Origin: Nitrospirota bacterium
Lineage (GTDB): Bacteria; Nitrospirota; UBA9217
Assembly (NCBI GenBank): GCA_963737155.1
Contig: CAVTRN010000001.1
Location: 640,001 to 704,000, forward strand
Length of the DNA: 64,000 bases
Direction: 5' to 3'
Shown here: in pieces, positions 29,403-62,938 of the stretch
Layout of the letters: every line of letters begins with the position of its first letter
How positions within the stretch are numbered: the stretch's first letter is position 1
Notes under the pieces: model-generated
Database searches by the model: none
What the model saw: the letters and a program-made list of their open reading frames with translations, nothing else
Told to the model about the DNA's origin: nothing
Position numbers and translations under genes: made by a program

Positions 29403-30326
29403 TCAGACAATGTCAACGCATTGAAGCTTGGCAGTCAGTGCTGGAACAAACTGCATGACGTCGGCCACTACCAGAACATCGGCAATCTCCCCAATGGGGG
29501 CATCCTTATCCTTATTGATAGCGACGATGAAGTCGGACTTTTTCATTCCAACCACATGCTGGATTGCGCCGCTGATGCCGCAGGCTATGTAAAGTTTGGG
29601 ACTAACCGTCTGGCCGGTGATGCCAACTTCCTGGCTGTATTTAACCCAGCCAGCATCAACTACAGGCCGACTGGCCCCGAGTTCGCCTCCGAGTATCTTA
29701 GCAAGTGTGGCGATAACGGGTATGTTATCCTTCTTGCCAACTCCCCTGCCAACGGCAACAATCACCCTGGCCTTAGCAAGGTCAACATCTTTGGGTTCTG
29801 CAGGCTTATAGTCGATAAACTCAACAGCACCTGTGCCATCAACATCCAAGCGCTGCACCTCCGGGGTGCCACTCTGTCGCATAACTGGGAACGCCCCCGC
29901 TTGAATTGTCAGCACCGCTTTGCCACCTGTTGGCTTGACGGTACGCAGCATTTTGCCGTTGCAGCACTTCACCTCGAAGTTGCCATTTTTCAACCCGACG
30001 ACCGCCGAAATCTGGCCCATTCTAATATTGGCAGATACACGAGGCGCCAAGTCCCAGCCGTAGGATGAATGGATAAAAACAATGTAGTCAGGCTTTTCCT
30101 TCTCTATTGCCTGTAAGACCAGTTTTTTGTGCAGGTCAGGGTTATAATCGCTGTATTTCGCGGTTTCCGCCAGATAGAGCTTTCCTTCGTATGCAGGAAG
30201 CTGGTTAACGTTGCCGACGAGTACCATGGAAGTCTCGCCCCCCAGTTGCTCTGCAAAGCCAAGTAGTTCATACGTTGACTCAAGGAGTTGCCCTTCCCGG
30301 TATTCCGCAACTAATAACAGTTTCAT
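29403..30326 (-). CDS. etfA: Electron transfer flavoprotein alpha subunit
   Basis: VAVGRGVG, LGASRPVVDAGW, VGITGQTVSPKLYIACGISGAIQHVVGM, AINKDKDAPI. Confidence 0.96.
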   Translation of the reverse strand: MKLLLVAEYREGQLLESTYELLGFAEQLGGETSMVLVGNVNQLPAYEGKLYLAETAKYSDYNPDLHKKLVLQAIEKEKPDYIVFIHSSYGWDLAPRVSANIRMGQISAVVGLKNGNFEVKCCNGKMLRTVKPTGGKAVLTIQAGAFPVMRQSGTPEVQRLDVDGTGAVEFIDYKPAEPKDVDLAKARVIVAVGRGVGKKDNIPVIATLAKILGGELGASRPVVDAGWVKYSQEVGITGQTVSPKLYIACGISGAIQHVVGMKKSDFIVAINKDKDAPIGEIADVLVVADVMQFVPALTAKLQCVDIV

Positions 30327-30335
30327 TTCGGCCTC

Positions 30336-31112
30336 CTAGCGCAGCACCGTGGTTTTCTCTTTGAGTATGCCCACTAGCTGATCGGCCATCGTCACTACAT
30401 CGCCCTCGAGGACGATCCCCCCACACTTTTTGAGCGGCGGATAAAACATCTCGGTAATTGCAAGGGGTCCTTCATCCAGAAGCGCTACGACCTGGATGGT
30501 TTTAATTTCCTTTTTTTTGGCCTTCATGATGTTGGGGAGGGTCGGGTAGCGTGGGACGTTAAGTCCTAGCTCGCAGGTGAGCAGTGCCGGGATCTTCAAT
30601 TTCACGATACCTTTGATCCCCCCCTCCAACTCACGTTTTCCTGTGACAATACCGTCGGCATATTCAAAACCGACCAAGGTGGTAGCACAGGCATAGCCGA
30701 GCAGTTCAGCCACGGTAACGCCTACCTGGGCCGAGCCCCGATCCTCCGATTGCATACCGGTGAAGATCAGATCAAAGTTCTGGCCTTTTGCATACTTGGC
30801 AATAATGGAAGCGATCTGCCACGGGTCCTTGAGCTGCGCTGCCGGATCCTGGACATGCATTCCCCGGTCACACCCCATGGCCAGTGCCTTTTTGATCGCC
30901 TCCCGCACGCGATCCGGGCCGATGGAAAGTACCGTCACCTCGGGAATATTGCACAGTTGTTCTTTGAGCTGCACAGCCTGCTCCACTGCGAATTCATCAT
31001 ATTCGTTCATCCGCCAAGCGATGTCGGACTCATCGTACCAGATGCCCTCCGTGTTCGGCTTAAATCTCGACTCCATGTCAGGAACCTGTTTAATGCAGAC
31101 AAGTATTTTCAT
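30336..31112 (-). CDS. etfB: Electron transfer flavoprotein beta subunit
   Basis: MKILVCIKQVPD, MNEYDEFAVE, ALAMGCD, NVPRYPTLPNIMKAKKK. Start set at ATG 31112. Confidence 0.96.
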   Translation of the reverse strand: MKILVCIKQVPDMESRFKPNTEGIWYDESDIAWRMNEYDEFAVEQAVQLKEQLCNIPEVTVLSIGPDRVREAIKKALAMGCDRGMHVQDPAAQLKDPWQIASIIAKYAKGQNFDLIFTGMQSEDRGSAQVGVTVAELLGYACATTLVGFEYADGIVTGKRELEGGIKGIVKLKIPALLTCELGLNVPRYPTLPNIMKAKKKEIKTIQVVALLDEGPLAITEMFYPPLKKCGGIVLEGDVVTMADQLVGILKEKTTVLR

Positions 31113-33098
31113 TTTTTCCACGTATTCTCTCGGCGACAATCTCCGTCAAGTCCTTAACCATCAATTCCCCTTCCCAACCTCCAGTCTTAATCCCATCCTC
31201 GAACATGGTGAGGCAGAAGGGACAGCTAGAAACAAGCAGCGGGACGCCGGTGTCCTTCGCCATCTGCACCCGCTTCACACTAATGTGGTCGCCGATCTTC
31301 TCCTCGGCCAGATCCGGCCACCACCTGCACCGCAGCAAAAGCTATCGTAGCCCGACTTCGCCATCTCCATCAATTGCCCTCCCGCCGCCAAAAGCACTTC
31401 CCGTGGCTCTTTGATGATATCCATGTACCGTCCTAGATAGCAGGAGTCGTGGTAAGTAAAATCGAATCGCTCGGGTGTGAGCATCAATCTCTGTTCTTTC
31501 AGTAGCTTGTCAAGGAAGGTTGCAGAGTGTTCCACCGGTAGATCAAGCCCCAGGTCTTTATAATCTCGTGCCAGGGTGTTAAAGCAGTGAGGACAGGTGG
31601 AAACGATCTTCTTGATGCCGTACCCCTTGATCAATTCTATGTTCTGGGCCGCCATCATCTGGTAGAGGTATTCGTTGCCGAGTTTGCGGACTGGCTCACC
31701 GCAGCATTTTTCCTCTTTGCCGAGAATGCCAACCCTAACCCCTGCGGCAGTGCAGATCTCCACAAAGTTTCTTGCCACTTCCTGGTTCCTCTTGTCAAAA
31801 GAAGCATAGCAGCCAACGAAATAGAGGATATCGACTTCCGTGCCGCTCTCCATAAGGGTTACCGGGAGGCCGTTGATCCACTCGCCGCGGGCCGCAAAAA
31901 CCAGGCCAAAGGGGTTGCCATTCACCTCCACGTTGCTGACCGCGGTCCTCACCTCGTTGCCAGGAAATGAACCCTCCATGAGGGTCAGGTGGCGGCGCAT
32001 CTCGATGATCTTGTTCACATGCTCGACATTGGCCGGGCAGATATCCTGGCAGGCGCGGCATGTGGTGCAGGACCAGAGGGCTTCCTGGCCAATAGTTTCT
32101 ATCAGTCCGGAGTCTGGAGAGCTCTCGGCGATCTCGCCCACCTGTTTGATCAGTTTCATGGGGGAGAGCGGTTTTCCGGTGGCTGTGGCGGGACAACGGT
32201 CCTGGCAACGCTTACAACCCATGCAAGCGTCGGCATCGAAAATATCCTTCCAAGTCAGATCGGTGATCTTTGCGGCCCCGAACTGGTCAACTTCTTCTTG
32301 AATTAGGTTTATGGTAGCGATTGATCCCTTCGGTTCTAACGGCGCAAAAAAAGCGTTGGCACTGGTAGTGACGATGTGTCGCAGTTTGGTGTAGGGGATG
32401 GCGCAAATCAAACCAAGAACTAGGACGAAGTGGCCCCACCAGAGGATTTTGTGCGTGATCAGGATCGACGGGAGATCAAATCCGTTAAACAACCGTGCGA
32501 CGACATAGCCGACAGGAGAAAAGAAAGCCAAGGCATGGTTCTGGTGGAGTTCGGTGGCAGCTATCCGCGCACCTTCGATCAGAAATCCGGTGCTCAGTAT
32601 GGCAAGGAGAAGTTGATGGATGAGGTAATGCTGGCCAGTGGTTTCAAGCCCTTCGGGCTTCTTGATGAACCGTCTGTAGAAGAGCCCCCCCAGCATTAAC
32701 AGCGCAACCAGCCCAGCCAGATCCAATACCAGCTTGTACCCCATATAGAACGCGCCGGAAAGAATATTGACCTTCATGATCGGCGTAAAGAAATCGACTT
32801 GGAGCATCACTACCAGAGTGCCGACGAAGAGGGTGAGGAATCCCCAGAAGAATAGGGAGTGGAAAAGGCCACCATCTCTTACCCTGACAACCTTTTTCTG
32901 GCCGAGCGCCTCGGCGATAAGCAACTTAAAGCGCTCCTTGAGATGGTCGAAACGATTGAGTGACTTACCCAACTGATAGAGTGACAGACGCTTCCAGAAT
33001 CCCCATACGCAGAAGGCAATTGCTAGGAACGATAAGAGGTACATGGGCCAAACGGCCCCGTGCCCGACATTCCAGAATATTTCTCTGGTCGCTTCCAT
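31090..33098 (-). CDS. Membrane heme-b/Fe-S oxidoreductase (HdrD/FadF-like, ETF:menaquinone oxidoreductase type); one base missing near 31310
   Basis: N-terminal transmembrane segments with His residues, CMGCKRCQDRCP and CTTCRACQDICP, two CCG domains. The last domain continues in another frame (LAEEKIG...SSCPFCLTMFEDG), so the gene runs to the stop at 31090 if the frameshift is corrected. Confidence 0.88.
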
Positions 33099-33176
33099 AG
33101 TCTGACTTCTATTCATCAGCAATTTTCGGATAAGGTACGACCGTCACAGCAATTCTTCATAGTGCCTTCCGACTCT

Positions 33177-33839
33177 TTATCCTAGGGGCAATGCATCACT
33201 GGCGATAGGAAGCTTAGTTGCCGGTTCACCGATGAATACGCTTTTATCTTCTATAGTTTCGAGTATAATCGCTCCTGCACCAATCACGCATTCTTTTCCG
33301 ATTGATACTTTATTCCTTATCGTTGCGTTTGCACCTAAGTAGGAACCCGAGCCGATATCCACGCTTCCCGCAACAGATACCCCGGGCGAAAAGAAACAAT
33401 GATCGCCGATGGTAACATCGTGAGCTATCATACAACCATTTGCTATAATTACATTGCTCCCAATCTTTGCGTCAGGAGAAACTACAGTATAATGACCAAT
33501 AATACAGTTATCTCCAATTGCGGTTTCAGGCTGTATAATTGAATGAGGGCTTATAAAATTTATCAAATTATAACCCATTTCTTTTGATCGAAAGTACCTC
33601 TCTTTCCTTATTTTGTTATTATGCACGTAACCAACTGCTATCAACATTCTATGCCCATCCGGCGGGAATGCAGATTCAACAGTATCAAACGGTAAAATGG
33701 GCAGATTACAAAGACTGTCGGATTCCAAATATTCTCTGTCTACGGTAAAACCCACTACCTCGTAATGAGAATAATTTTTAAGGTAAAAAAAGGATTCTCG
33801 AGCCATAGATTTATTTCCATAAATTACAACTTTTTCCAT
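33177..33839 (-). CDS. NeuD/PglD/VioB family left-handed beta-helix sugar acyltransferase (copy 2)
   Basis: VVIYGN..AR N-domain, IAVGY, hexapeptide repeats, catalytic-type IAHD, IGAGA. Start set at ATG 33839. Confidence 0.9.
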   Translation of the reverse strand: MEKVVIYGNKSMARESFFYLKNYSHYEVVGFTVDREYLESDSLCNLPILPFDTVESAFPPDGHRMLIAVGYVHNNKIRKERYFRSKEMGYNLINFISPHSIIQPETAIGDNCIIGHYTVVSPDAKIGSNVIIANGCMIAHDVTIGDHCFFSPGVSVAGSVDIGSGSYLGANATIRNKVSIGKECVIGAGAIILETIEDKSVFIGEPATKLPIASDALPLG

Positions 33840-33904
33840 GTACAATTCTCCTCTCGAAGTCCGTGTCAAATACCGCCGTCCGGTTCTGCGTAATTAATCA
33901 GAAA

Positions 33905-36505
33905 TTAAGAAGAGGTATCTATTATCTTGTAAACATTTTCCAAATCAACCTTTTCTTTCTTTGCATTTATAAATTCGGCCTTATGAGCTTTAGCTTTTTC
34001 GATTAACAAAGCTAACTTTGACACCGTCCGTTCTTGAAAAATTACACTTAAAGGGATTTTTATTTTGAAAGTCTGATTGATTTTTGCTATTAAATTTGCA
34101 CTACTAAGTAAATTACCACCTAACTCAAAAAAATCATCGTTTACGCCAATTATTTCTAATTGAAGCACTGTCTGCCAGATGTTAGTGACTGTGCGCTCTA
34201 TCTCCATTCGTACCGCTAAATGAGCGGTTTCTAATTCCGGCCGGAGGTCATCAGGCAACGGTAGGGAAAGGCGGTCTATCTTACCACTTCGTGTCAAAGG
34301 AAACTTCTCCAATATCACGAAAGCATTCGGCACCATGTTCTCCGGTATCTTCATTCTCAAATAATCACGCAATGCGCTCAAGGAGGGAATCTCTCCATCA
34401 TTCAGAACTAGATAAACCACTAACTGCTTGTCTCCATTAGCATCTCCTGTGACTACCGCAACCCCCTTCCGAACGTTTGGATACTGGTCAAGCATCTCCT
34501 CGATCCGCCGAATATTCTCGCTTGTACCCGTAACTTCTGTCAAAAAATCGGCCAAATCGGAAATGGTAGAGCATTCAAACAGGGTCTGGATTGGTAGATC
34601 AAGATTGTAGACATCCCGGATATGCGACACAGCCTTAATCGCCAGTAATGAATGCCCACCCAAATCAAAAAAACTGTCGTTGATCCCGATATTCTCTACT
34701 TTTAGCAATTCGGTCCAAATGGCAGCGAGGGCCTTTTCGGTTTCCGTGTGTGGCCTGACGAAATCGTGGGAGGCTGCGAGATTATCGGAAGTGGGCGCCG
34801 GCAGAGATTTTCGATCAATCTTTCCGTTCGATGTGAGCGGCAGCCGGTCCAGCCTGATAAAATAGGGGGGGAGCATGTAAGCGGGCAATTCCTGGGCGAG
34901 GTGGGCGCGCAGCTCCGCCGCGTTCAACGACTTCTCGCTCACATAATATGCGACCAGCCTATTGATACTCATCTCACCAGTTTTCGACGGCTCAGCGCTG
35001 TCCGCCATTTGTTTGCTGTCCCAGCCAACTACATCGACTACACACTCGCGAACGTCGGCGTGTTTCAGGAGACGGGCCTCGATCTCCCCCAGCTCAATGC
35101 GTACGCCGCCAACTTTCACCTGATTATCAACGCGTCCCAGGAATTCCATGCTTCCCTTGGCGTTCCATCGAGCGAGATCTCCAGTCTTGTAGAGGCGCAA
35201 CAACGCTGACCCAATGACTGATGATTTTGCTGCCGGCAAATTTTGTCTCGGGTCCTTCGCCGTTACGAATTTCTCCTCGGTGAGCTCTGGCCGATTGACG
35301 TAGCCGCGGGCCAATCCATCCCCTGCTATGCACATCTCGCCTATGTCGCCAATGGGCACAGGGTTGAGGTTCTCGTCGAGAATAAAGATGCAGGTATTGG
35401 CAGCAGGATTTCCAATGGGGACCGAAGGGGCGAGATCGTTCTCTCTATCATAACGGTGAATCATGCAACCGACGGTGGCCTCCGTGGGGCCGTACTCGTT
35501 GTATATCTCCACCGGGTAGCCGGCGTTGCGAGTGATATCGCTTGCCAGCTCAGTCTTGAAATCCTCGCCGCCGACGATGAACTTGCGAATCTTGGTGGCA
35601 CTCGAGACCATCCCTTTTATCATGGCAAGGTGAGCTGGCGTCAGCTTCACGATGTCAGCCACGTTGTCCTCAATAACTTTGAAAATCACCGTGCCGTGCA
35701 CACCCGGGTCTTCATGATAGACGACAATGCGGCCACCGGAAATAAGGGGCGTGAATATCGATGTTACCGTGAGATCAAATGCAAGAGAGGAAAACAATGG
35801 CCAGGTCAGCCGTTCACCCCTGCAGTACTTCTCGTTCGCCCACCAGATGTAATTCACCAAGCTACGGTGCTCGATCATAACGCCCTTGGGCGTGCCTGTG
35901 GAGCCGGAAGTGTAGATAACGTAGGCGAGATTGTTTGGGGACACGGGAAACCGTGGATTTGTGACCGGATATTGCCCGATCGAAGCGAAGTCGGCATCCA
36001 ACGTTATCACTCGCGCTATGCCGTCCGGAAGGTCCCTCGCAAAACTCGATTGGGTCACCAACACGGGCATAGTTCCCGCAAGTCCTTTTGCAATATCCTG
36101 CAATATGAAGACAAGGCGCTCTTTCGGGGTGTTAATATCAATAGGCACATATGCAGCACCAGCCTTAAGCACTCCGAGCATTGAGCAAACAACCTCGATT
36201 GAGTTTCCCATGTACAGGGCGACGAGTTGATCCGCATCGGTGCCGAGTGTGCGGAGTTTCACTGCCATCTGATTCGCGCGGTCGTTCAGCTCACGATACG
36301 TCAACCCTTGATCGCCAGAATGGATGGCCTCATCCTCTGGCGTGCGCTCTACCTGGGCTTCAAAGAGTTCAACTATTGTTTTGTCTGCGGGATATGGCGC
36401 CGCAGACTTGTTGTATTCGATAACCAGCGACTGATACCCGCGCTCCAACTGAGGGGCTAACGAATCGATGGGCCGATCGATCACGTAGTCTTTTTCATTG
36501 CTCAT
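33905..36505 (-). CDS. NRPS: A(Asn-type)-T-orphan A-subdomain-T(lacking Ser)
   Basis: LAYVIYTSGSTGTPKG, NEYGPTE, YKTGDL, NGKIDR, T motif FFDLGGHSL, followed by an isolated A C-terminal subdomain (SGKIDR) and FFELGGNLL. Confidence 0.9.
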   Translation of the reverse strand: MSNEKDYVIDRPIDSLAPQLERGYQSLVIEYNKSAAPYPADKTIVELFEAQVERTPEDEAIHSGDQGLTYRELNDRANQMAVKLRTLGTDADQLVALYMGNSIEVVCSMLGVLKAGAAYVPIDINTPKERLVFILQDIAKGLAGTMPVLVTQSSFARDLPDGIARVITLDADFASIGQYPVTNPRFPVSPNNLAYVIYTSGSTGTPKGVMIEHRSLVNYIWWANEKYCRGERLTWPLFSSLAFDLTVTSIFTPLISGGRIVVYHEDPGVHGTVIFKVIEDNVADIVKLTPAHLAMIKGMVSSATKIRKFIVGGEDFKTELASDITRNAGYPVEIYNEYGPTEATVGCMIHRYDRENDLAPSVPIGNPAANTCIFILDENLNPVPIGDIGEMCIAGDGLARGYVNRPELTEEKFVTAKDPRQNLPAAKSSVIGSALLRLYKTGDLARWNAKGSMEFLGRVDNQVKVGGVRIELGEIEARLLKHADVRECVVDVVGWDSKQMADSAEPSKTGEMSINRLVAYYVSEKSLNAAELRAHLAQELPAYMLPPYFIRLDRLPLTSNGKIDRKSLPAPTSDNLAASHDFVRPHTETEKALAAIWTELLKVENIGINDSFFDLGGHSLLAIKAVSHIRDVYNLDLPIQTLFECSTISDLADFLTEVTGTSENIRRIEEMLDQYPNVRKGVAVVTGDANGDKQLVVYLVLNDGEIPSLSALRDYLRMKIPENMVPNAFVILEKFPLTRSGKIDRLSLPLPDDLRPELETAHLAVRMEIERTVTNIWQTVLQLEIIGVNDDFFELGGNLLSSANLIAKINQTFKIKIPLSVIFQERTVSKLALLIEKAKAHKAEFINAKKEKVDLENVYKIIDTSS

Positions 36506-36510
36506 ATGCT
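34632..36510. repeat. Near-identical ~1.88 kb direct repeat, copy B (A-T didomain)
   Basis: Matches 45113-46991 at offset 10481, with about 7 mismatches seen by eye. Confidence 0.95.
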
Positions 36511-37879: not shown

Positions 37880-38542
37880 TCATCCAAGGGGTAATTCATC
37901 GCTGAAAATATCAAGCTTAGTTGCCGGTTCACCAAGATATACGCTTCTATCTTCTATATTTTCAAGTATAATCGCTCCTGCACCGATAACGCATTCTTTC
38001 CCCAGCGATACCCTATTCCTTATTGTTGCATTTGTACCTAAGAAGCAACCTGACCCGACATTCACGCTTCCCGAGACAGACACGCTATTTGAAAAAAAGC
38101 AATGGTCGCCAATAACGACGTCGTGCGCTATCGCACAATTATTTCCGATAATTACATTATTCCCAATTTTAGCATCCGGCCCAATTACAGAGTAATGGCT
38201 GATAGTACAGTTATCCCCAATTTCTGTTCCGGGATGTACAATTGAATGAGGGCTTATATAATTTACCAGCGAATAGCCCATTTCCTTTGCCCGCAGGTAC
38301 CTATCTTTTCTTATATTGTTGTTCTGCACATAACCGACTGCTATCAACATTTTATGCCTGTTCGGCGGGTATACAGTTTCGATAACATCAAAAGGGATGA
38401 CGGGCAGTTGAAAAAGACTGTCCGATTCCAAATACTCTCTGTCTACGGTAAAACCGACGATCTTATAATCGGAATGTTGCTTTAGACCAAGGTAGATTTC
38501 TCGAGCCATAGATTTATTTCCAAAAATTATCACGTTCTCCAC
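37880..38542 (-). CDS. NeuD/PglD/VioB family left-handed beta-helix sugar acyltransferase (copy 1)
   Basis: GTG start, VIIFGN..AR, IAVGY, hexapeptide repeats, IAHD. Close paralogue of 33177-33839. Confidence 0.9.
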   Translation of the reverse strand: MENVIIFGNKSMAREIYLGLKQHSDYKIVGFTVDREYLESDSLFQLPVIPFDVIETVYPPNRHKMLIAVGYVQNNNIRKDRYLRAKEMGYSLVNYISPHSIVHPGTEIGDNCTISHYSVIGPDAKIGNNVIIGNNCAIAHDVVIGDHCFFSNSVSVSGSVNVGSGCFLGTNATIRNRVSLGKECVIGAGAIILENIEDRSVYLGEPATKLDIFSDELPLG

Positions 38543-38618
38543 GATTCAGCCATCCTTTCGAACTCACTGTCAAACACAGATCTTCGATGCTGTGCAATAA
38601 ATCAGCGATTAAGATAAT

Positions 38619-41738: not shown

Positions 41739-44700
41739 CTTGAAGGCTCCCTTCCATCAGGCCTGCTTGTTCTCTCTGTCTAATTCGTTGATGCAACCGG
41801 TTCTTCCCCTCTTTTAACTTCTCGGCCCTATCGTCATTTTTATTAGAAGGAATTTGCTCACTTCCTCCCACGCTTAAATAGTGAGACAGCGAGTTTATTG
41901 TCGGGTACTTGAACATGTCAAGCATGGACACATTCCGTTCCAGTTTGTTGCACAGTCTGCCGTGAACCTGGGCCATACGTAATGAATTGCCGCCCAAATC
42001 GAAAAAATTATCATTTACGCCTGTCTTTTCCAGATGAAGCACCTCTTGCCATATAGCAGCGATCGTGCGCTCTATTTCCGACCCAGGAGCCATATAGACA
42101 GATTCTAGCTCAGGACGGTGGCTTGCTGGAGCTGACAGGGATCGGCGATCTATCTTGCCATTCAGTGTCAAAGGAAACTTTTCCATCATCGTGAAGCTAC
42201 TTGGCACCATATACTCAGGCAGCTGTTCCCTCAGATATTGGCGCAATTCACTGATAGAAAGGTTTCGGTTCGCATTTGGGATGATATAAGCAGCCAGCTG
42301 TTTGTCCCCAGGGGTGTCCTCTCGGGCTATGACCACAACGTGGCGAACGGCTTCATGCCCTCCTAATACTGTTTCTATCTCGCCTATTTCTATACGAAAT
42401 CCTCGGATCTTGACCTGGTTATCCAAGCGGACAAGGTACTCCAGTTTTCCGTCTGGCAGATAACGGACCAAATCGCCAGTGCGGTATAAACGGGTCCCAG
42501 CTATTTTACTGAACAGATCAGGGATGAACTTTTGTACCGTCAGCTCTGGGCGATTTAAATAACCGCGTGCGAGCCCATCACCGCCGATCAACAACTCGCC
42601 GGGTACTCCTATCGGCAAAAGCTGGAGGTGCTTGTCGACGACGTAGAATTGCGTGTTTGCAATCGGCTGGCCTATCGACACAGACTCTCCCTCCTTGACC
42701 TGGCTGACAGCGGACCAGATAGTCGTTTCTGTCGGTCCGTACATGTTCCAGAGAGAAGCACACTTCGACAGCAGAGGCCTAGCCAGTTCCTGCGACCATG
42801 CCTCACCACCGCAAAGAATCTTCAATCGAGGATTTCCTTCCCAGCCCGATTCCAGCAATAGGCGCCACGTGGTTGGAGTGGCTTGCATCACCGTAGCTCT
42901 GCTTCGGGTCATGGCCATTGCTAATTGTTTCCCATCCATGACCACTTCTTGAGGCACGATTACAACCTTGGCCCCGGTTGTTAGCGGCAACCAAAGTTCC
43001 AGACCCAAAATATCGAAGGATATGGTCGTAACTGATAAGAGAGTATCGTGCTCATCCATTCCCGGCGATCTACGCATAGAGTTCAGAAAATTGACTACTG
43101 CACGATGGGATATTTCAACTCCTTTCGGATTACCCGTCGAGCCAGAAGTATAGAGGACATAAGCCAGATTGCTAGAACTCGGACGATCAGCAGCAGCTTG
43201 CGGCGCAACCGTCTCCGGTAAGGCATCAACACATATCACTTTTGCCTGGTGCGGCGGAGTCTCATCCAGTAACTTCTTCAAGGTAACCAGCACCGGAGGC
43301 TTTGCATCCGCAAGCATGAACGCCAATCGTTCCCGCGGGAACATTCTATCCAGCGGCAGGTAAGCGCCGCCAGCCTTGAGAATCCCCAGTAAGGCGATTA
43401 CCATCTCGAGGGAGCGGTCCATGAAGAGCCCTACGAGTATATCGGGACCAACCCCTAGCCCTCTCAGGTGCTGAGCGAGTTGATTGGCGCGATCATTAAG
43501 TTCACCGTAGGTCAGTGTCTGTTGCTCGAACACCAGGGCCACCTGATCGGGAATTCGCAAGCCCTGCTCTTCGATCAGTTGGTGCAAACAGAGATCTTTC
43601 CCGCGATAGGCCACTGTTGTATCATTCCAATTCACCAGCAGTTGCTGACGTTCAGCTTCGGTGAGCATCGGTAACATAGAAATACTCTGGTCTGGATCGG
43701 AGACTATTGCCTCTAGAAGTTTTTCGTAATGTTTACACAGACGTTGGATGGTATGGGCTTCAAATAAATCGGTACTGTACTCAATCAACCCTTCGAGATG
43801 GTTTCCGGTCTCAGAGAGGAGCAGCGTCAGATCAAACTTTGATGTTCCCGTCTCCAGTGTTCGGTTGCCGGACACCTTCGATACCTCCGAGACTCCGTCA
43901 GGGTTGTGGACAACGAACATCACCTGAAAGAGAGGAGTGCGGCTCGGATCCCGCTCCGGTGTCATTTCCGAAACGAGATGCCCGAAGGGAAGGTCTGCAT
44001 GAGCATAGGCACCTATGGCCCGCTCACGCACTTGTTGCAGCAGGGAGCGGAAGTCCAGGCCGTCATTGAACTTCGCGCGCAAGACGACTGTGTTGAGGAA
44101 GTAGCCGATCATGCGCTCAGTTTCTCTGTGAGTTCGGCCGGTAATGGGGGTCCCCACCAGGATGTCGCCCTGGCCCGTATAGCGGTGCAACAAGGCCATA
44201 AAACTTGCCTCAAGAATCATAAACAGGGTGGCGTTCTCCCGTCGACCCAGAGATTTTATTCGCTCCAATAACTCCTTGGACAACTCAAAGATCTCTGTCG
44301 ATCCACGAAAGCTCTGCACGGCAGGGCGTTGCTTGTCGGTGGGCAGTTCTAGAATGAATGGAGCACCCGCCAGTTCTTCCTTCCAGTAAGATACCTGCCT
44401 CTGTAGTACTTCTCCCTGTAACCAATTTCGCTGCCAACAGGCAAAATCTGCATATTGGATTGGCAACTCCGAAAGAGGAGACGGCTGATTTTGAGAAAAA
44501 GCCTCAAAAAGTTGATTTACTTCCTGGTGAATTATCTCCATGGACCATTCGTCAGCAATAATGTGGTGGATGGTCAGCAGCAACCTGTGTTCTTGATTGG
44601 TCAGATGGACCATGGTCCCTCGAAATAGAGGGGCTTGAGACAAGTCGAAGGGCTTTCGCCCCTCCTCATGCACAACACGGAGCCATTCGCGTTCTTGCTC

Positions 44701-46986
44701 CTGCTCAGGCAAAGAACGTAAATCCAATTCTGACAGCGTCAGGTCGATCATCGGCAGAACAACCTGCATCGGTTGTCCTTCATTGTGAGAAAAGGCGGTG
44801 CGCAATACTTCATGGCGGCGCACCAACTCCATCATGGCTCTTCTCATCGTTTCCGCGTCATACTCCCCACCGATACGGATCACGTCCACGAGATTGTAGA
44901 CAGGACTGCCGGGTGACAGTTGGTCCAAAAACCAGAGCGGTTCCTGAGTAAAGGATAGTGAACATGGTCCACTCTGTTTACGCTGCCCGATCTCTTGAAT
45001 ACTTCCACCCTTGGCTTTAGTCAGGGCCTTGGACACATCGGTAATGGTAGGGTTTTCAAACAAAGTTTCGATCTCTAGATCCACGCCGAATACATCACGA
45101 ATTCTCGATATGGCCTTAATCGCCAGCAATGAATGCCCACCCAAATCAAAAAAACTGTCGTTGATCCCGATATTCTCCACTTTTAGCAATTCGGTCCAAA
45201 TGGCAGCGAGGGCCTTCTCGGTTTCCGTGTGTGGCCTGACGAAATCGTGGGAGGCTGCGAGATTATCGGAAGTGGGCGCCGGCAGAGATTTTCGATCAAT
45301 CTTTCCGTTCGATGTGAGCGGCAGCCGGTCCAGCCTGATAAAATAGGGGGGGAGCATGTAAGCGGGCAATTCCTGGGCGAGGTGGGCGCGCAGCTCCGCC
45401 GCGTTCAACGACTTCTCGCTCACATAATATGCGACCAGCCTATTGATACTCATCTCACCAGTTTTCGACGGCTCAGCGCTGTCCGCCATTTGTTTGCTGT
45501 CCCAGCCAACTACATCGACTACACACTCGCGAACGTCGGCGTGTTTCAGGAGACGGGCCTCGATCTCCCCCAGCTCAATGCGTACGCCGCCAACTTTCAC
45601 CTGATTATCAACGCGTCCCAGGAATTCCATGCTTCCCTTGGCGTTCCATCGAGCGAGATCTCCAGTCTTGTAGAGGCGCAACAACGCTGACCCAATGACT
45701 GATGATTTTGCTGCCGGCAAATTTTGTCTCGGGTCCTTCGCCGTTACGAATTTCTCCTCGGTGAGCTCTGGCCGATTGACGTAGCCGCGGGCCAATCCAT
45801 CCCCTGCTATGCACATCTCGCCTATGTCGCCAATGGGCACAGGGTTGAGGTTCTCGTCGAGAATAAAGATGCAGGTATTGGCAGCAGGATTTCCAATGGG
45901 GACCGAAGGGGCGAGATCGTTCTCTCTATCATAACGGTGAATCATGCAACCGACGGTGGCCTCCGTGGGGCCGTACTCGTTGTATATCTCCACCGGGTAG
46001 CCGGCGTTGCGAGTAATATCGCTTGCCAGCTCAGTCTTGAAATCCTCGCCGCCGACGATGAACTTGCGAATCTTGGTGGCACTCGAGACCATCCCTTTTA
46101 TCATGGCAAGGTGAGCTGGCGTCAGCTTCACGATGTCAGCCACGTTGTCCTCAATAACTTTGAAAATCACCGTGCCGTGCACACCCGGGTCTTCATGATA
46201 GACGACAATGTGGCCACCGGAAATAAGGGGCGTGAATATCGATGTTACCGTGAGATCAAATGCAAGAGAGGAAAACAATGGCCAGGTCAGCCGTTCACCC
46301 CTGCAGTACTTCTCGTTCGCCCACCAGATGTAATTCACCAAGCTACGGTGCTCGATCATAACGCCCTTGGGCGTGCCTGTGGAGCCGGAAGTGTAGATAA
46401 CGTAGGCGAGATTGTTTGGGGACACGGGAAACCGTGGATTTGTGACCGGATATTGCCCGATCGAAGCGAAGTCGGCATCCAACGTTATCACTCGCGCTAT
46501 GCCGTCCGGAAGGTCCCTCGCAAAACTCGATTGGGTCACCAACACGGGCATAGTTCCCGCAAGTCCTTTTGCAATATCCTGCAATATGAAGACAAGGCGC
46601 TCTTTCGGGGTGTTAATATCAATAGGCACATATGCAGCACCAGCCTTAAGCACTCCGAGCATTGAGCAAACAACCTCGATTGAGTTTCCCATGTACAGGG
46701 CGACGAGTTGATCCGCATCGGTGCCGAGTGTGCGGAGTTTCACTGCCATCTGATTCGCGCGGTCGTTCAGCTCACGATACGTCAACCCTTGATCGCCAGA
46801 ATGGATGGCCTCATCCTCTGGCGTGCGCTCTACCTGGGCTTCAAAGAGTTCAACTATTGTTTTGTCTGCGGGATATGGCGCCGCAGACTTGTTGTATTCG
46901 ATAACCAGCGACTGATACCCGCGCTCCAACTGAGGGGCTAACGAATCGATGGGCCGATCGATCACGTAGTCCTTTTCGTTGCTCAT
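41731..46986 (-). CDS. NRPS: A(Asn-type)-T-C-A(Gly-type)-T
   Basis: Two complete A domains, T motifs LGGHSL and LGGNSL, C domain HHIIADEWS. Codes read manually: DLTKIGEVGK and DILQLGMIWK. Start set at ATG 46986, shared with the paralogue. Overlaps the PKS start. Confidence 0.95.
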   Translation of the reverse strand: MSNEKDYVIDRPIDSLAPQLERGYQSLVIEYNKSAAPYPADKTIVELFEAQVERTPEDEAIHSGDQGLTYRELNDRANQMAVKLRTLGTDADQLVALYMGNSIEVVCSMLGVLKAGAAYVPIDINTPKERLVFILQDIAKGLAGTMPVLVTQSSFARDLPDGIARVITLDADFASIGQYPVTNPRFPVSPNNLAYVIYTSGSTGTPKGVMIEHRSLVNYIWWANEKYCRGERLTWPLFSSLAFDLTVTSIFTPLISGGHIVVYHEDPGVHGTVIFKVIEDNVADIVKLTPAHLAMIKGMVSSATKIRKFIVGGEDFKTELASDITRNAGYPVEIYNEYGPTEATVGCMIHRYDRENDLAPSVPIGNPAANTCIFILDENLNPVPIGDIGEMCIAGDGLARGYVNRPELTEEKFVTAKDPRQNLPAAKSSVIGSALLRLYKTGDLARWNAKGSMEFLGRVDNQVKVGGVRIELGEIEARLLKHADVRECVVDVVGWDSKQMADSAEPSKTGEMSINRLVAYYVSEKSLNAAELRAHLAQELPAYMLPPYFIRLDRLPLTSNGKIDRKSLPAPTSDNLAASHDFVRPHTETEKALAAIWTELLKVENIGINDSFFDLGGHSLLAIKAISRIRDVFGVDLEIETLFENPTITDVSKALTKAKGGSIQEIGQRKQSGPCSLSFTQEPLWFLDQLSPGSPVYNLVDVIRIGGEYDAETMRRAMMELVRRHEVLRTAFSHNEGQPMQVVLPMIDLTLSELDLRSLPEQEQEREWLRVVHEEGRKPFDLSQAPLFRGTMVHLTNQEHRLLLTIHHIIADEWSMEIIHQEVNQLFEAFSQNQPSPLSELPIQYADFACWQRNWLQGEVLQRQVSYWKEELAGAPFILELPTDKQRPAVQSFRGSTEIFELSKELLERIKSLGRRENATLFMILEASFMALLHRYTGQGDILVGTPITGRTHRETERMIGYFLNTVVLRAKFNDGLDFRSLLQQVRERAIGAYAHADLPFGHLVSEMTPERDPSRTPLFQVMFVVHNPDGVSEVSKVSGNRTLETGTSKFDLTLLLSETGNHLEGLIEYSTDLFEAHTIQRLCKHYEKLLEAIVSDPDQSISMLPMLTEAERQQLLVNWNDTTVAYRGKDLCLHQLIEEQGLRIPDQVALVFEQQTLTYGELNDRANQLAQHLRGLGVGPDILVGLFMDRSLEMVIALLGILKAGGAYLPLDRMFPRERLAFMLADAKPPVLVTLKKLLDETPPHQAKVICVDALPETVAPQAAADRPSSSNLAYVLYTSGSTGNPKGVEISHRAVVNFLNSMRRSPGMDEHDTLLSVTTISFDILGLELWLPLTTGAKVVIVPQEVVMDGKQLAMAMTRSRATVMQATPTTWRLLLESGWEGNPRLKILCGGEAWSQELARPLLSKCASLWNMYGPTETTIWSAVSQVKEGESVSIGQPIANTQFYVVDKHLQLLPIGVPGELLIGGDGLARGYLNRPELTVQKFIPDLFSKIAGTRLYRTGDLVRYLPDGKLEYLVRLDNQVKIRGFRIEIGEIETVLGGHEAVRHVVVIAREDTPGDKQLAAYIIPNANRNLSISELRQYLREQLPEYMVPSSFTMMEKFPLTLNGKIDRRSLSAPASHRPELESVYMAPGSEIERTIAAIWQEVLHLEKTGVNDNFFDLGGNSLRMAQVHGRLCNKLERNVSMLDMFKYPTINSLSHYLSVGGSEQIPSNKNDDRAEKLKEGKNRLHQRIRQREQAGLMEGSLQDE

Positions 46987-46991
46987 ATGCT
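45113..46991. repeat. Near-identical ~1.88 kb direct repeat, copy A (A-T didomain)
   Basis: Matches 34632-36510. The one amino-acid difference seen is ISGGHIVV vs ISGGRIVV. Confidence 0.95.
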
Positions 46992-47031
46992 GTTCTCCTC
47001 TTTCAGCCAACTGAAGACCATTTTCATAATT

Positions 47032-47916
47032 TCATTCGCTCCGCTTTGGTTGTATAAGAACATCAGGTAAATCCAGTTCGTCCACGTGATCGTCAACGAT
47101 CGAAATATTACCGTTGCCGTGAATGCTGTTGATGAAACTCGATATTCTGTAGCTCAATGAATTAAACTCGTAAGTAATCTTGATTCGTCCTTGATTTCGC
47201 ACAAATGATTCTCTAAACATTAATGTAAGAAGATCTTCATCTGATATCAAGTCCATAAACTTACGTTTAAGCATGTCGTAACAGTCATAATAGTTCATTT
47301 GGATCGAAAATCGGTGATCTGTACCGTACGAAAAATCATCAAGTGTTCTTTCATGCCTTTTGAGAACGAGGGTCTCTCGGTCGAAGAGAATTTTCTGGAT
47401 GCGTCCGCCGTTGATCGATGCATCACTGTCAAGGATGAACGGGGAGCACGTTCCGAAACTCATTCCGTTGGGCAATGTTGAAGCTTTCTTGAGGTGGGTT
47501 TCTTGAGGTAATCGAAGCGCACTTATGATTTGAGATCGATCGATAAAGCATCCGGTTTCCGGGGTAACAATCGCGTACAGGGCCCCTGTATCCGGACACT
47601 CAAAATAAAGAGCTTTGATGACATTCAACGGACTCCATTCACCCAAAAGCTCCGCCTTTTCGTAGCATGTGTTCGTTTTTTTCGGATGCGTGACAATGCT
47701 ACACTCACCATGACTTTTCTCAAAATGATCAGCGATGTACTCAAGACCCCATTTCGACAGAAATAGCTTTCGAAATTCCTCACCATTAACTTGAAGTTCT
47801 TTCGCAAAACTTGGCAAGCACTTCCCATTCAATGATGGATCATTTTTTTCAATATCATAGTCTTCGGGTGTAAGTGGTGATGCCTGGGACTTCAATCGAT
47901 AAGAGCTCATAATCAA
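47032..47916 (-). CDS. Hypothetical protein with a YbaK/ProXp (aminoacyl-tRNA editing)-like domain
   Basis: HPKKTNTCYEKAELLG...VIKALYF, GMSFGTCSPF, ILFD, SYG..HRFSIQM match the order and spacing of YbaK/INS family motifs as I recall them. Confidence 0.6.
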   Translation of the reverse strand: MIMSSYRLKSQASPLTPEDYDIEKNDPSLNGKCLPSFAKELQVNGEEFRKLFLSKWGLEYIADHFEKSHGECSIVTHPKKTNTCYEKAELLGEWSPLNVIKALYFECPDTGALYAIVTPETGCFIDRSQIISALRLPQETHLKKASTLPNGMSFGTCSPFILDSDASINGGRIQKILFDRETLVLKRHERTLDDFSYGTDHRFSIQMNYYDCYDMLKRKFMDLISDEDLLTLMFRESFVRNQGRIKITYEFNSLSYRISSFINSIHGNGNISIVDDHVDELDLPDVLIQPKRSE

Positions 47917-48215: not shown

Positions 48216-49364
48216 TCATAGCGACCATCCAATCACTTCCTTCATAATTTCATTTGTGCCAGCGTAAATTCGTTGTCCGCGTCCATCCGCCCACATGCGG
48301 GCGATCGGATATTCCAGCATATAGCCGTAGCCGCCATGCAACTGAACACATTCATCGACGATGCGCCACTCACAGTCAGTGAGCCAATACTTCGCCATGG
48401 CAGCGGTAATAGCGTCGAGCTGACCTGCGATGAAACGCTCTATGCAGTTGTCGATAAAAATCCGACCAATGTGGGCTTCGGTCTTGCATTCGGCCAGTTT
48501 GAAACGCGTATTCTGAAAATCAATCAGTGGCTTGCCGAACACAATGCGCTCTTTCACATACTTAGTCGTTATGGCCACAGCTCGTTCTGCTGTTGCGATT
48601 GCGGCAACGCCAATCGTGAGGCGCTCATAGGGTAATTGCGCCATCATTTGAGAAAATCCTTTGCCTTCAGCGGGACCTAGAAGGTTTGAGGCCGGAACAC
48701 GCACGTCATCGAAGAAAAGCTCGCAGGTATCCCGTTCATGCATACCGATTTTTTCGAAAGGGTGGCCAACTTTGTATCCGGGAAGATCCTTCGTTTCGAC
48801 GATGATGAGCGAGATGCCTTTCGGGCCGACAGCTTTAGCGTCGGTCTTCACGGCAAGGCAGACAATACCTGCTAGCCAACCGTTGGTGATGAACGTCTTT
48901 GAGCCATTGATTACATAGTGATCACCGTCGCGACGAGCGGTGGTTTTGATGCTCTGCACGTCCGAGCCGGCAGTAGGTTCGCTCATAGCAATTGCGCCCA
49001 CCAGCTCGCCACGCGCCATGGGAGGGAGCCACTTGCGTTTCTGCTCCTCACTACCGTAGGCGAGGATATAATGTGCCATAATGCTATGGACCGTACAGCC
49101 AAAGTGGACTCCCGCTTGAGCGAGCTCCTCTATAATGACAGCTTCGTAAGCGAAGGTACCTCCTCCGCCATATTCTTCTGGTGCGTCTGGGAGCAGGATG
49201 CCTATGCCACCCGCTGCTATCCAAGCTTCGGCATCGGGATAATGCTGTTGACGCCAACGGGCTTGGTGCGGCACGAATTCTTTTTGTATGAATTTGCGGA
49301 CCGTTTCGCGAAACATCCGAAGCTCGTCATTCATCCACGAAGATTGGTAGGCAATAGGAGACAT
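48216..49364 (-). CDS. Acyl-CoA dehydrogenase (LCAD-type catalytic arrangement)
   Basis: [56 protein letters not shown]. Confidence 0.95.
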
Positions 49365-49457
49365 TTTGAGACCTCTGCGCTGAAATTATAGCTATATATT
49401 TGACAATACAAGTACTGACGCACCTAGACTTTGCAGAATTTTCTTTACCGGCATGTT

Positions 49458-50306
49458 TCAGGAGTCAGCAAAAATCTCCATCCACCGTGATTTAAGCAGC
49501 CCCATTCTCACAATATTATGCCATGTGCTGTTGATCAGAGCGTCGTCGAGAAACAGCCCCTCCAGTTCAAATCCAAACTTGCTGTTCAAATTGATGTTAC
49601 GTATATTCGCATTTCCTGAATGAATAAAGACCTTGTTAAAATTAAGAATGCAAAAAACGTAATACAAAAAAACGAATGTGGCATGTTTCCCTATCCCTTT
49701 TCCCTGCGAATTTAACTCACCGACCAGTTTTTTCATTTCCAATTTTTTTGACTCATTATCAAGAGAGTCCGCGCCAATAATCCCAACTGGTTTTTCGCAA
49801 TAATATATCCCAAAATAGGTTCGACCATAATATTCAAAATACTTTATTAAATCACTTTCTGTGTCAGGCAGTGCGGGTATAAAATTATACTTGATCCCCG
49901 GCTGACTCAACCAGTTCGCGACTTGGTTGTACAGTTCCGGCCGGAGTGGCGATATTTCGACGTCCTCAATTCTTAATTTCTTCTCTGTGGACCAGTTATC
50001 TTTAATGTCGCTAACTCTAAACAGATCATTATAAAATTGATTGCCGCCCTTCTGAATTCTCTTGTCTTTGATCAGACAGTCCAGTAAATGAGTCGACACT
50101 GAGACAATATCTTTTTCCTCGACGCCGAAATTGATGAGTTCCTTATAAAATCCCTTAGAAATTATTTTTAACATTTGCTGCTGCTGCAGATCTTGAACTT
50201 CAGGGTCGGTTTCTGGGCCCATAGGTGCTTGCTGTACCTCGGTCAATTTCAGGTTTTCAGCCATGCCGTCGAACATCGGTAATCTGTTTTTTTGCATTGC
50301 AGTCAT
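49458..50306 (-). CDS. GNAT N-acyltransferase (RimJ/PseH-like) with a helical N-terminal extension
   Basis: QGKGIGK acyl-CoA motif A, LNFNKV, NIRNINLNSKFGFELEG, VRMGLL. Confidence 0.82.
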   Translation of the reverse strand: MTAMQKNRLPMFDGMAENLKLTEVQQAPMGPETDPEVQDLQQQQMLKIISKGFYKELINFGVEEKDIVSVSTHLLDCLIKDKRIQKGGNQFYNDLFRVSDIKDNWSTEKKLRIEDVEISPLRPELYNQVANWLSQPGIKYNFIPALPDTESDLIKYFEYYGRTYFGIYYCEKPVGIIGADSLDNESKKLEMKKLVGELNSQGKGIGKHATFVFLYYVFCILNFNKVFIHSGNANIRNINLNSKFGFELEGLFLDDALINSTWHNIVRMGLLKSRWMEIFADS

Positions 50307-61359: not shown

Positions 61360-61371
61360 TGCGTTCCCCCA

Positions 61372-62928: not shown

Positions 62929-62938
62929 TTCTACCTCC

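Follow-up and report, generated by a model that had tools for sequence, protein, structure and literature searches.

Gene content of the cassette

We analysed a stretch of 64,000 nucleotides (the window; all positions below refer to it) from contig CAVTRN010000001.1 of a soil Nitrospirota bacterium (assembly GCA_963737155.1). In it, 12 genes at 29403..50306, among them nonribosomal peptide synthetase (NRPS), polyketide synthase (PKS) and sugar-type acyltransferase genes, lie within an XrtA/PEP-CTERM exopolysaccharide (EPS) locus, as annotated by Pfam and NCBIfam on the open reading frames (ORFs) of the window. Judged from its sequence, this block is most likely a carrier-protein-dependent N-acylation cassette with two branches, belonging to a Wzx/Wzy, XrtA-type EPS pathway. 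All 12 genes had been named in a preliminary description of this DNA and were recovered where it had placed them, on the minus strand, by Pfam, NCBIfam and predicted fold. According to the ORF list of the window, the neighbouring EPS genes lie on the same strand.

In the direction of transcription, the block begins with a GNAT acetyltransferase of 282 aa (49458..50306; Pfam Acetyltransf_3, 28 bits), an acyl-CoA dehydrogenase (ACAD) family flavoprotein (48216..49364; three ACAD domains in Pfam) and a 294-aa protein of YbaK/ProX fold (47032..47916; predicted fold and Foldseek). These are followed by NRPS1 (41731..47010), a PKS module (38619..41738), AcT1 (37880..38542), which is a left-handed beta-helix (LbH) N-acyltransferase of the NeuD/PglD/VioB family (TIGR03570), an Sfp/HetI-type 4'-phosphopantetheinyl transferase (PPTase; 36705..37661; Pfam ACPS and AASDHPPT_N), NRPS2 (33905..36505) and AcT2 (33177..33869; TIGR03570), a paralogue of AcT1. 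The last three genes encode a membrane Fe-S oxidoreductase with CCG and two 4Fe-4S domains (31275..33122; Pfam CCG, Fer4 families and Nitrate_red_gam) and the beta and alpha chains of an electron transfer flavoprotein (ETF), namely etfB (30336..31139; Pfam ETF) and etfA (29403..30326; Pfam ETF_alpha and ETF).

NRPS1 has the domain order A1-T1-C-A2-T2 (A, adenylation; T, carrier; C, condensation) according to Pfam, motifs and specificity codes. Its core motifs are intact (HHIIADE in the C domain, NGKIDR, GGHS in T1 and GGNS in T2), and its stop codon overlaps the start of the PKS gene by 8 nt. The PKS consists of one module with ketosynthase (KS), acyltransferase (AT) and carrier (T3) domains (Pfam and motifs). 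The KS motifs TACS, HGTAT and NIGH are intact, i.e. the Cys-His-His triad is present; the AT contains GHSIGE and HAFH, the latter of which we take to be of the malonyl type; and the carrier serine of T3 lies in GGSS, with an A10-like remnant (NGKVDR) ahead of the domain. Neither ketoreductase (KR), dehydratase, enoylreductase nor thioesterase (TE) domains were found in the PKS by Pfam. The ten-residue A-domain codes, taken by alignment at landmark positions, are DLTKIGEVGK for A1 and DILQLGMIWK for A2. By code tables, these are presumably of the Asn type and the Gly type, respectively, in agreement with the substrates called in the preliminary description. The chain on T3 would then be Asn-Gly extended by one malonyl unit, present as a beta-keto acyl thioester. 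The type I NRPS/PKS possesses no terminal release domain (TE, reductase or terminal C), and no small-molecule exporter accompanies it, as had been claimed before: among the 41 window ORFs scanned, Pfam yielded zero matches to Thioesterase, NAD_binding_4, a second Condensation domain or a transporter, and no plausible small ORF was seen in the gaps between genes.

A second NRPS is present as previously described, but its composition has to be corrected. It is made up of a copy of A1-T1, an A-subdomain remnant (AMP-binding_C) and a carrier-like domain devoid of the carrier serine, designated T* (Pfam and alignment). The first ~660 residues of NRPS2 copy A1-T1 with 97% identity at the protein level and 98.1% at the DNA level over 1971 nt, the two copies being located at 34550-36520 and 45031-47001. 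The stretch comprising the last carrier and the following acyltransferase also occurs twice (33179-34211 and 37882-38916; 75.7% identity over 1035 nt), and by this alignment T*-AcT2 and T3-AcT1 are one unit that has been duplicated. The much higher identity of the A1-T1 copies (98.1% versus 75.7% for their neighbours) points to a recent event, either gene conversion or duplication, that affected the loading didomain.

The genome consists of two contigs, and the region is matched, in small shares, by Logan contigs from soil and peat metagenomes. In one set of these (X1), 37 of 46 pieces were at least 99% identical to the window, while a second set (X2) represents a relative of about 95% identity. 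The junction between the PPTase side, AcT1 and the end of the PKS is spanned by contigs of both sets (X2, 37761-38752; X1, 38368-38624), and the junction between the Fe-S oxidoreductase and AcT2 by X2 (31966-33381). Since independent metagenome contigs span both junctions, misassembly, which had been named as a way in which the earlier interpretation might fail, is unlikely. The depth of X2 was 2-3x higher over 34340-36340, as would result if the two A1-T1 copies had been collapsed into one.

Acyltransferases beside the last carrier domain

AcT1 and AcT2 share 71% identity and both exceed the cut-off of TIGR03570 (160.8 bits), AcT1 with 187.8 bits over profile positions 2-201 of 202 and AcT2 with 195.5 bits over positions 1-201. 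The best PDB matches of AcT1 are PglD, PerB, VioB and LpxD, and LpxD and LpxA are the next-best family and PDB matches of the two enzymes. The known acceptors of the PglD/VioB family are NDP-amino sugars. The AIAHD motif of the acyltransferases aligns with IEHE of PglD, in which His125 is presumably the catalytic residue, and the corresponding His140 is invariant (6/6 and 16/16 clade members). A co-fold of T3 (alignment A3) and AcT1 in three copies (alignment A4) scored 0.01, which weighs neither for nor against the pairing.

We then examined where related acyltransferases are encoded. A scan of genomes with AcT1, using one genome per species, returned 8 loci. For metagenomes, an alignment of six acyltransferases was used, and the flanks of the best 80 of 411 relatives were searched by tblastn with the domains of the window; a metagenome locus was considered evaluable if at least 300 nt of sequence were available upstream of the acyltransferase. 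Fourteen metagenome loci encoded acyltransferases at least 60% identical to AcT1, and 11 of them were evaluable. Nine of these 11 have, on the same strand, a carrier domain whose end lies 78-291 nt upstream of the acyltransferase; as the acyltransferases of L029, L030 and L032 are identical, the nine loci (we refer to loci and genomes by our handles, L and G) represent 7 distinct lineages. The picture differs in the 40-50% identity class (66 loci, 59 evaluable), where a carrier was adjacent in a single case (1/59, L040); A or T domains occurred within 1.4-2.5 kb of the acyltransferase in L042, L057/L058 and L080. In all three Spirochaetota genome loci (61-65% identity; metagenome-assembled genomes (MAGs) of Leptospirales and Spirochaetes), an NRPS gene starts 122-226 nt downstream of the acyltransferase gene.

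In a quick maximum-likelihood tree of 88 acyltransferases, all carrier-adjacent members of at least 60% identity fell into one clade (SH-aLRT 100). Of its 19 rows, 14 are carrier-adjacent loci, 3 lack flanking sequence and 2 are assigned neither way. From these comparisons, adjacency to the last carrier domain appears as a specific property of this clade. The cassette is patchily distributed: an acyltransferase closer than 44% was present in none of 400 other Nitrospirota genomes, and the window PKS, as part of a cassette, was found in none of 60 relatives. The only close PKS match in these genomes (G060, 55%) belongs to a large, conventional cluster of several synthetases and was not counted as a homologue of the cassette. 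In the genome itself (G000:C2:1551740-1553677) and in four relatives (G007, G023, G024 and G043), KS-AT regions with 31-33% identity to the window PKS are found in ORFs of 2500-2800 aa, which represent a different, large synthase.

The carriers adjoining the acyltransferases have a further feature in common. A C-terminal tail of the form ..KKxxDLxxxIxLIG is shared by the window PKS, L028, L029/L032, L037, L038 and L039 (the alignment of carrier domains omits L033, whose translated stretch contains a stop codon). The PKS of the window ends in ...KKRTDLKKAINLIG and NRPS2 in ...KKEKVDLENVYKIIDTSS, the latter being a variant of the shared tail, ..VDLENVYKIIDTSS. The PKS ends of the Spirochaete loci and L040 are related to it (..KLGLSN, ..KMLGLTD and ..KLGIV), whereas carriers that feed a KS have unrelated, basic tails. 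In the terminal carrier-like domain of NRPS2, T*, the motif reads GGNLL, with Leu at the position of the phosphopantetheine serine. The same replacement, with the tail kept, is seen in the second domain of the other tandem T-T* proteins, encoded by L029 and L038. Because a serine-less second carrier has been retained in these independent loci, it is to be regarded as a feature rather than as decay. It may be suggested that T* together with its tail acts as an adaptor which brings the acyltransferase to the true carrier, T1.

Related polysaccharide loci and accessory genes

All related loci with enough flanking sequence proved to be polysaccharide loci, from Spirochaetota and deltaproteobacterial MAGs and from soil and sediment metagenomes. 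The Spirochaetota loci contain the acyltransferase, an NRPS (C-A-T) and a PKS (KS-AT-T, 50% identical to that of the window), together with orthologues of four further window genes: DegT aminotransferase b (74%), the flippase Wzx (61%), a GT2 glycosyltransferase (54%) and a FemAB-like protein (50%). After the PKS gene, all three of them carry two genes without a Pfam match (about 250 and 375 aa; L012:17236-19154, L010:11509-13409 and L011:7484-9404) which have no counterpart in the window. In a deltaproteobacterial MAG (acyltransferase 44%), PEP-CTERM-type EPS genes are followed by genes for a FemAB-like protein, the acyltransferase, a GNAT protein, an apparently split ACAD and an AMP-binding protein.

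The metagenome loci, annotated by Pfam, fall into similar patterns. L028 encodes C-A-T, KS-AT-T, the acyltransferase and Wzx, and L040 the same set with a PPTase before Wzx and an MBOAT protein after it. L037 has DegT, PPTase, AsnB, ACAD, A-T, acyltransferase and GT2; L038 has PPTase, ACAD, a YbaK-like protein, A..T-T*, acyltransferase, Wzx and GT2; and L032 has DegT, ACAD, A(methyltransferase)-T-remnant-T*, acyltransferase and GT2. L039 has an ABC-2 transporter pair, DegT, ACAD, an A-T protein with an embedded FkbM methyltransferase and the acyltransferase, followed by three GT2s, a FemAB-like protein, DegT, the exosortase EpsH, EpsI and GT4. No TE, reductase or terminal C domain was found in the scanned ORFs of L010, L012, L013, L028, L032 and L037-L040. 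The anticipated recurrence of the NRPS(-PKS) and acyltransferase block inside polysaccharide loci is thus borne out in every sufficiently flanked related locus, with no TE seen.

The A domains of these loci carry different codes. Asn-type codes were extracted from five A domains (window A1, L033, L037, L038 and the same-genus genome G010), the Asp-type code DLTKIGHVG from two (L032 and L039), the Ser-type code DVWHxSLVDK from three (L010, L012 and L028) and Gly-type codes from two (L040 and window A2). Codes that vary between loci while the acyltransferase stays constant form the pattern expected of variable glycan decoration. ACAD accompanies the genes with Asn/Asp-type A-T, and PKS those with C-A(Ser/Gly)-T; the window unites both designs. 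In the Asp-type proteins (L039:5060-7924 and L032:1835-5269), the FkbM-type methyltransferase domain is situated between the A core and the carrier. In L037 and L038, an insert of ~400 aa occupies this place, with a weak match to a PP-loop ATPase in L038.

These architectures bear on the possibility that the acyltransferases act on the assembly line itself, for example by N-acetylating the alpha-amine of carrier-bound Asn, with release brought about by the FemAB-like, GNAT, YbaK-fold or a membrane enzyme. Natural N-acyl groups are often amine-capped, such as the N-acetylglycyl and N-acetylalanyl groups on Qui4N (PMC3210612), and the FemAB-like gene is co-conserved as well. However, the C-A-T/KS-AT-T versions (L028, L040 and L010-L012) start with a C domain and so may offer no free amine, while their acyltransferase still lies by the last carrier. 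Furthermore, AcT1 covers the full profile of the sugar-nucleotide family (2-201 of 202), and the loci do not all have any other candidate release enzyme in common. We therefore regard on-line acetylation as rather unlikely.

Besides the acyltransferase, the related loci share sugar and transfer genes with the window. Orthologues of DegT b (22963..24223; DesI/VioA-like by Pfam and NCBIfam) are 69-82% identical in L012, L032, L037, L039, L044, L054 and L068; those of Wzx (19954..21420; Pfam Polysacc_synt_3) 54-72% in L012, L028, L031, L038 and L040; and those of the cassette-linked GT2 (18594..19613; Pfam) 54-57% in L011, L012, L027, L038 and L039. Relatives of the FemAB-like protein (21543..22484; Pfam Acetyltransf_6) of 40-50% identity occur in L010, L012, L013, L044 and L057/58. 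In the window, dTDP-sugar supply is represented by the glucose-1-phosphate thymidylyltransferase RmlA (8176..9120; TIGR01207, 476 bits with a cut-off of 361), while RmlB is encoded elsewhere in the genome.

A different acceptor could also be envisaged: the repeat unit on undecaprenyl-PP, a PEP-CTERM protein, or a lipid, in which case a lipo-amino-acid glycolipid would result. The window locus and L039 are of the exosortase type, and a 1736-aa surface protein with Ig repeats is encoded in the operon. Against this stand the tight co-conservation of the cassette with the DesI/VioA-like aminotransferase and RmlA and the acceptors known for the acyltransferase family, which are NDP-amino sugars; we consider a non-nucleotide-sugar acceptor quite unlikely. 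The surface protein (53831-59041; Big_5 and InlB B-repeat-like Ig domains) is flanked by the gene for the PEP-CTERM outer-membrane protein on one side and that for the priming transferase on the other, and a PEP-CTERM tail is absent from its last 89 residues.

The two DegT aminotransferases that had been described at 22963-25336 are both present, but only the first (DegT a, 24224..25336; Pfam DegT, 417 bits) is intact. DegT b is split by one additional base at 23912 (within 23905-23915): residues 1-79 of the L012 orthologue align to it in one frame as far as 23912, after which the alignment continues in another. One soil-metagenome contig (X3) does not contain the base, restoring the frame (...EISGEVITTPFTF), and a contig of the ~95% relative X2 retains it. 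The extra base may be a real pseudogene mutation, a shared polymorphism or a consensus error. Together with GGNLL in the last carrier of NRPS2 and the recent A1-T1 duplication, this frameshift might indicate a cassette that is decaying in this strain and makes nothing now. Such decay is, nonetheless, very improbable, given that the serine-less carrier is kept in L029 and L038, that all other catalytic motifs are intact, that both halves of DegT b remain open reading frames and share 68-75% identity with the L012 orthologue, and that a soil-metagenome contig carries an intact allele.

As for the accessory proteins, the best NCBIfam matches of ACAD are AcrC (294 bits) and the prolyl-PCP dehydrogenase RedW (209 bits), both below cut-off, and orthologues of 72-86% identity are found beside A-T genes in L032, L037, L038, L039 and G010. 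With RedW among its closest named models, oxidation of a carrier-bound Asx residue is plausible. The Fe-S oxidoreductase likely connects ETF to the quinone pool. PPTase orthologues are present in G010, L037, L038 and L040. The GNAT protein has its RimL/SpeG-like domain at residues 117-262, after an N-terminal extension; no homologue of it was found in the related loci, and N-acylation of the Asn amine is a possible role.

The 294-aa protein had been labelled YbaK-like, which stands at the level of the fold and not at that of the Pfam family. No match was obtained in Pfam (E up to 1, including PF04073), NCBIfam (E up to 0.01) or PDB sequences, and its 153 homologues of ~290 aa are all unnamed. 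A single-sequence prediction reached a pLDDT of 37; with an alignment of 43 homologues, AF2 reached 84. Foldseek then retrieved 2cx5, 2z0k, 1dbu, 2dxa and 1wdv (E 6e-6 to 3e-5, TM on target 0.65-0.74), and an Atlas feature match to tRNA_edit clusters scored 0.90. The predicted structure thus has the fold of the YbaK/ProX trans-editing deacylases, which act on aminoacyl-tRNA. The protein occurs in 4 of 401 Nitrospirota genomes, in G010 within the order PPTase-ACAD-YbaK-like-A-T. Members of the family without an NRPS were observed at the end of two Wzx/Wzy loci, L023 (G350:C8, 11893-15920) and L025 (G046:C32, 416-4576), where the gene directly follows an asparagine-synthase-like gene and a gene of ~450 aa (AMP-binding-like in L023, no Pfam match in L025).

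The wider surroundings agree with the PEP-CTERM-type EPS setting proposed earlier. Upstream of the cassette, an XrtA/PEP-CTERM export set (59124..63802; minus strand, NCBIfam) comprises an export protein, a chain-length determinant, a tyrosine autokinase and an outer-membrane protein; four XrtA-type models are matched above their curated cut-offs, namely TIGR03027 (216 bits, cut-off 180), TIGR03007 (366, 279), TIGR03018 (244, 231) and TIGR03016 (131, 91). After the four export genes come the Ig-repeat protein, a priming sugar-phosphate transferase (51989..53158), a WbpB-like 3-dehydrogenase (50944..51945) and a small LbH acetyltransferase (50468..50989; these three by Pfam/NCBIfam). Downstream of the cassette are genes for a PMT_2-like membrane protein, a second WbpB-like dehydrogenase, a PssD/E-type glycosyltransferase, the two DegT proteins, the FemAB-like protein, Wzx, four GT2s and a Wzy-like protein. 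No exosortase gene was found by the Pfam scan of the window ORFs; the best exosortase match lies on the second contig of the genome (C2:2680360-2681121, 221 bits). On the plus strand at 2-4152, the far end of the locus, are genes for a fragment of a histidine kinase, for a sigma-54 response regulator and for a GAF-HisKA protein, which may represent a PEP-CTERM-type regulatory pair.

A proposed pathway and its known counterparts

The gene content, the intact motifs, the acyltransferase clade with its carrier adjacency, the co-conserved sugar genes and the carrier tail can be united in a model. What the model adds to them as proposals is which way the acyl group moves, which sugar accepts it, what the substrates are, and what the dehydrogenase, the YbaK-fold protein and GNAT do. 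According to the model, the PPTase of the locus would prime the carriers. In the short branch, A1 of NRPS2 would adenylate an Asn-type amino acid and load it onto T1, from where AcT2 would move the acyl group, possibly after modification by ACAD. In the long branch, NRPS1 would load the same amino acid and condense it with Gly, and the PKS would add one malonyl unit, leaving the chain on T3. Each branch ends in a tailed carrier or carrier-like domain directly followed by a dedicated beta-helix acyltransferase, which would take the acyl group off the phosphopantetheine arm, in the fashion of LpxD/LpxA, and place it on the amino group of a nucleotide amino sugar. This acceptor would most likely be a dTDP-4-amino-4,6-dideoxyhexose, supplied by RmlA/RmlB together with the DesI/VioA-like DegT b; for one branch, a 3-amino sugar from the WbpB-like genes and DegT a could serve instead. 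The co-conserved GT2 is a candidate for putting the acylated sugar on the lipid-linked repeat unit, which Wzx would flip and, as polymer, the XrtA-type machinery would export. ACAD would probably modify carrier-bound Asn/Asp and be reoxidised via EtfAB and the membrane Fe-S oxidoreductase, and a proofreading role towards aminoacyl esters or thioesters is possible for the YbaK-fold protein.

That the products of the line end on a glycan through AcT1 and AcT2 seems to us, on balance, probable. The off-loading of a TE-less line by the acyltransferases onto an NDP-amino sugar, as put forward in the preliminary description, gains support from the clade, the adjacency and the shared sugar genes, all of them sequence-based arguments. 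Several observations weigh against it. The substrate codes depend on the landmark positions chosen and on the code tables. With T* lacking the serine, AcT2 would have to draw its substrate from T1, and DegT b, the best co-conserved sugar gene, is split. L034 and L035 belong to the clade (61-63%), although no carrier domain is present in the about 900-1000 nt upstream of their acyltransferases; they may have the Spirochaete gene order, and 264 and 129 nt are all that is available downstream. In the tblastn search, no related locus had ETF or Fe-S genes in its flanks, which places the dehydrogenase/ETF block outside the conserved core, and the ACAD/ETF role is consequently the weakest part of the mechanism.

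The remaining points of this kind would also suit a different explanation, namely that the NRPS-PKS produces a free compound, such as a pyrrolidinedione derived from Asn-Gly that leaves the line by spontaneous cyclisation or through an unlinked hydrolase, and that the acyltransferases are ordinary acetyl-CoA-dependent sugar N-acetyltransferases in a mosaic locus. Characterised PglD-family enzymes use acetyl-CoA or short acyl-CoA donors, and PglD, PerB and VioB are the best PDB matches here. The GC content of the cassette (0.489 versus 0.464 for the rest of the window) and the lack of a carrier-linked acyltransferase in the 400 other Nitrospirota genomes could mark an inserted biosynthetic island. 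Moreover, the A1-T1 orthologue of G010 (72%) is fused to an alpha/beta-hydrolase domain resembling 'hydrolase 2, exosortase A system-associated', and on the same contig (L022, C262:1-7379) a 'hydrolase 1'-like gene follows the fusion; both hydrolase matches are below cut-off. In this genome, A-T is paired with hydrolase-like domains, a different partner from the beta-helix acyltransferase. An acyltransferase was not visible on this contig of 7.4 kb, which ends there. On the other hand, carrier adjacency is clade-specific (9/11 and 3/3 versus 1/59), glycan genes flank the cassettes on both sides in several phyla, neither an exporter nor a TE was seen in any locus scanned, and T* and the acyltransferase were duplicated as a unit. 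A free product is therefore unlikely in our view, and N-acylation of a nucleotide amino sugar remains the reading that we prefer.

We would give even weight, for and against, to a broader proposal: that a widespread class of TE-less NRPS and NRPS-PKS systems exists, in which the final carrier or a serine-less adaptor bears a docking tail for an acyltransferase of the PglD/VioB clade, release occurs by amide formation on nucleotide amino sugars, and the side chains (Asn, Asp, Ser or Gly, with or without malonyl) are swappable. If true, this would be a new class of hybrid glycoconjugates and a new mechanism of NRPS release. Confirmed release of NRPS/PKS chains by amide formation on a sugar nucleotide, through a trans-acting LbH enzyme, would also explain 'orphan, TE-less' clusters that genome mining marks as incomplete and would provide a modular handle for engineering decorated polysaccharides. 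Aminoacyl and short polyketide-like N-acyl groups are found on the amino sugars of many bacterial O-antigens and capsules; N-acetylglycyl, N-acetylalanyl, 3-hydroxybutyryl-alanyl, malyl and dihydroxyhexanoyl groups occur on Qui4N, Qui3N, GlcNAc3NA and bacillosamine in many bacteria (PMC3210612). The enzymes that make and attach such groups are mostly unknown. The locus and its relatives suggest a concrete route for such groups, an A/carrier line with optional C and KS modules that is read out by a sugar-type acyltransferase.

The concept is less unprecedented than the preliminary description had implied, as two older genetic precedents exist. The viosamine island of Pseudomonas syringae pv. 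tabaci contains vioA (aminotransferase), vioS (KAS III), acp, vioR (reductase), vioB, vioM and vioT (glycosyltransferase) and yields dTDP-N-(3-hydroxybutanoyl)-2-O-methylviosamine for flagellin glycans; vioA, vioB, vioR and vioT mutants are without the sugar (PMC3927599). A DegT aminotransferase, a VioB-family acyltransferase, a carrier, a ketosynthase and a glycosyltransferase are clustered in both systems (here DegT b, AcT1/AcT2, the T domains, KS and GT2), which constitutes a functional analogy. A carrier-built acyl group is put on a 4-amino-4,6-dideoxyhexose there, as we propose here. The island differs in its discrete acyl carrier protein (ACP), KAS III, KR and four-carbon acyl group, whereas the window encodes a type I NRPS/PKS that uses amino acids and has no KR, with the carrier fused and specially tailed and a Wzx/Wzy EPS as the target.

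The second precedent is provided by the tetronate genes VC0248-VC0252 (wbeK-O / rfbKLMNO) of Vibrio cholerae O1, which are linked to the acylation of perosamine, a step needed for O-antigen assembly (PMC3441752). There, too, an adenylating enzyme and a carrier in a polysaccharide locus build an N-acyl group for a 4-amino sugar; condensation and ketosynthase modules are missing, the pathway is homology-based, and export proceeds by an ABC transporter. The ACP, ligase and acetyltransferase among these genes were reportedly assigned by Morona and colleagues in 1995.

Among enzyme families, the NeuD/PglB/VioB N-acetyltransferases (TIGR03570) have the full profile and the beta-helix His in common with AcT1 and AcT2; their characterised members use acetyl-CoA or short acyl-CoA, while the clade described here lies beside carriers and is proposed to use acyl-S-carrier donors. 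LpxD and LpxA are likewise left-handed beta-helix enzymes that transfer an acyl group from a phosphopantetheinyl carrier onto a UDP-sugar, but with a fatty acyl-ACP donor of primary metabolism, another N-terminal domain and another acceptor. The 'exosortase A system-associated' acyl-CoA ligase (TIGR03098), hydrolase 1 (TIGR03100) and hydrolase 2 (TIGR03101) show that adenylating and accessory enzymes occur in PEP-CTERM EPS loci. The window A domains match TIGR03098 below its cut-off; the set, classed by NCBIfam as hypothetical equivalogs, comes without a beta-helix acyltransferase, C domain or PKS. More distant parallels to A/carrier-based decoration and to aminoacyl transfer onto an amine are Dlt (DltA/DltC), in which an NRPS-like A domain and a carrier decorate a glycopolymer, forming esters outside the membrane via an MBOAT protein, and BtrI/BtrH of butirosin biosynthesis, where a carrier-bound aminoacyl chain passes to the amine of an amino sugar, BtrH being no beta-helix enzyme and the acceptor an aminoglycoside.

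In the literature covered, with most subscription journals outside the search and hence provisionally, we found no description of a PglD/VioB-type enzyme that reads out a multimodular NRPS or NRPS-PKS, of such a carrier tail or of a serine-less adaptor, and the NRPS and lipopolysaccharide sections of one further source are unrelated to NRPS-to-sugar off-loading (PMC3102044). The system appears to be a new form of a known kind, the carrier-protein-dependent N-acylation of nucleotide amino sugars.

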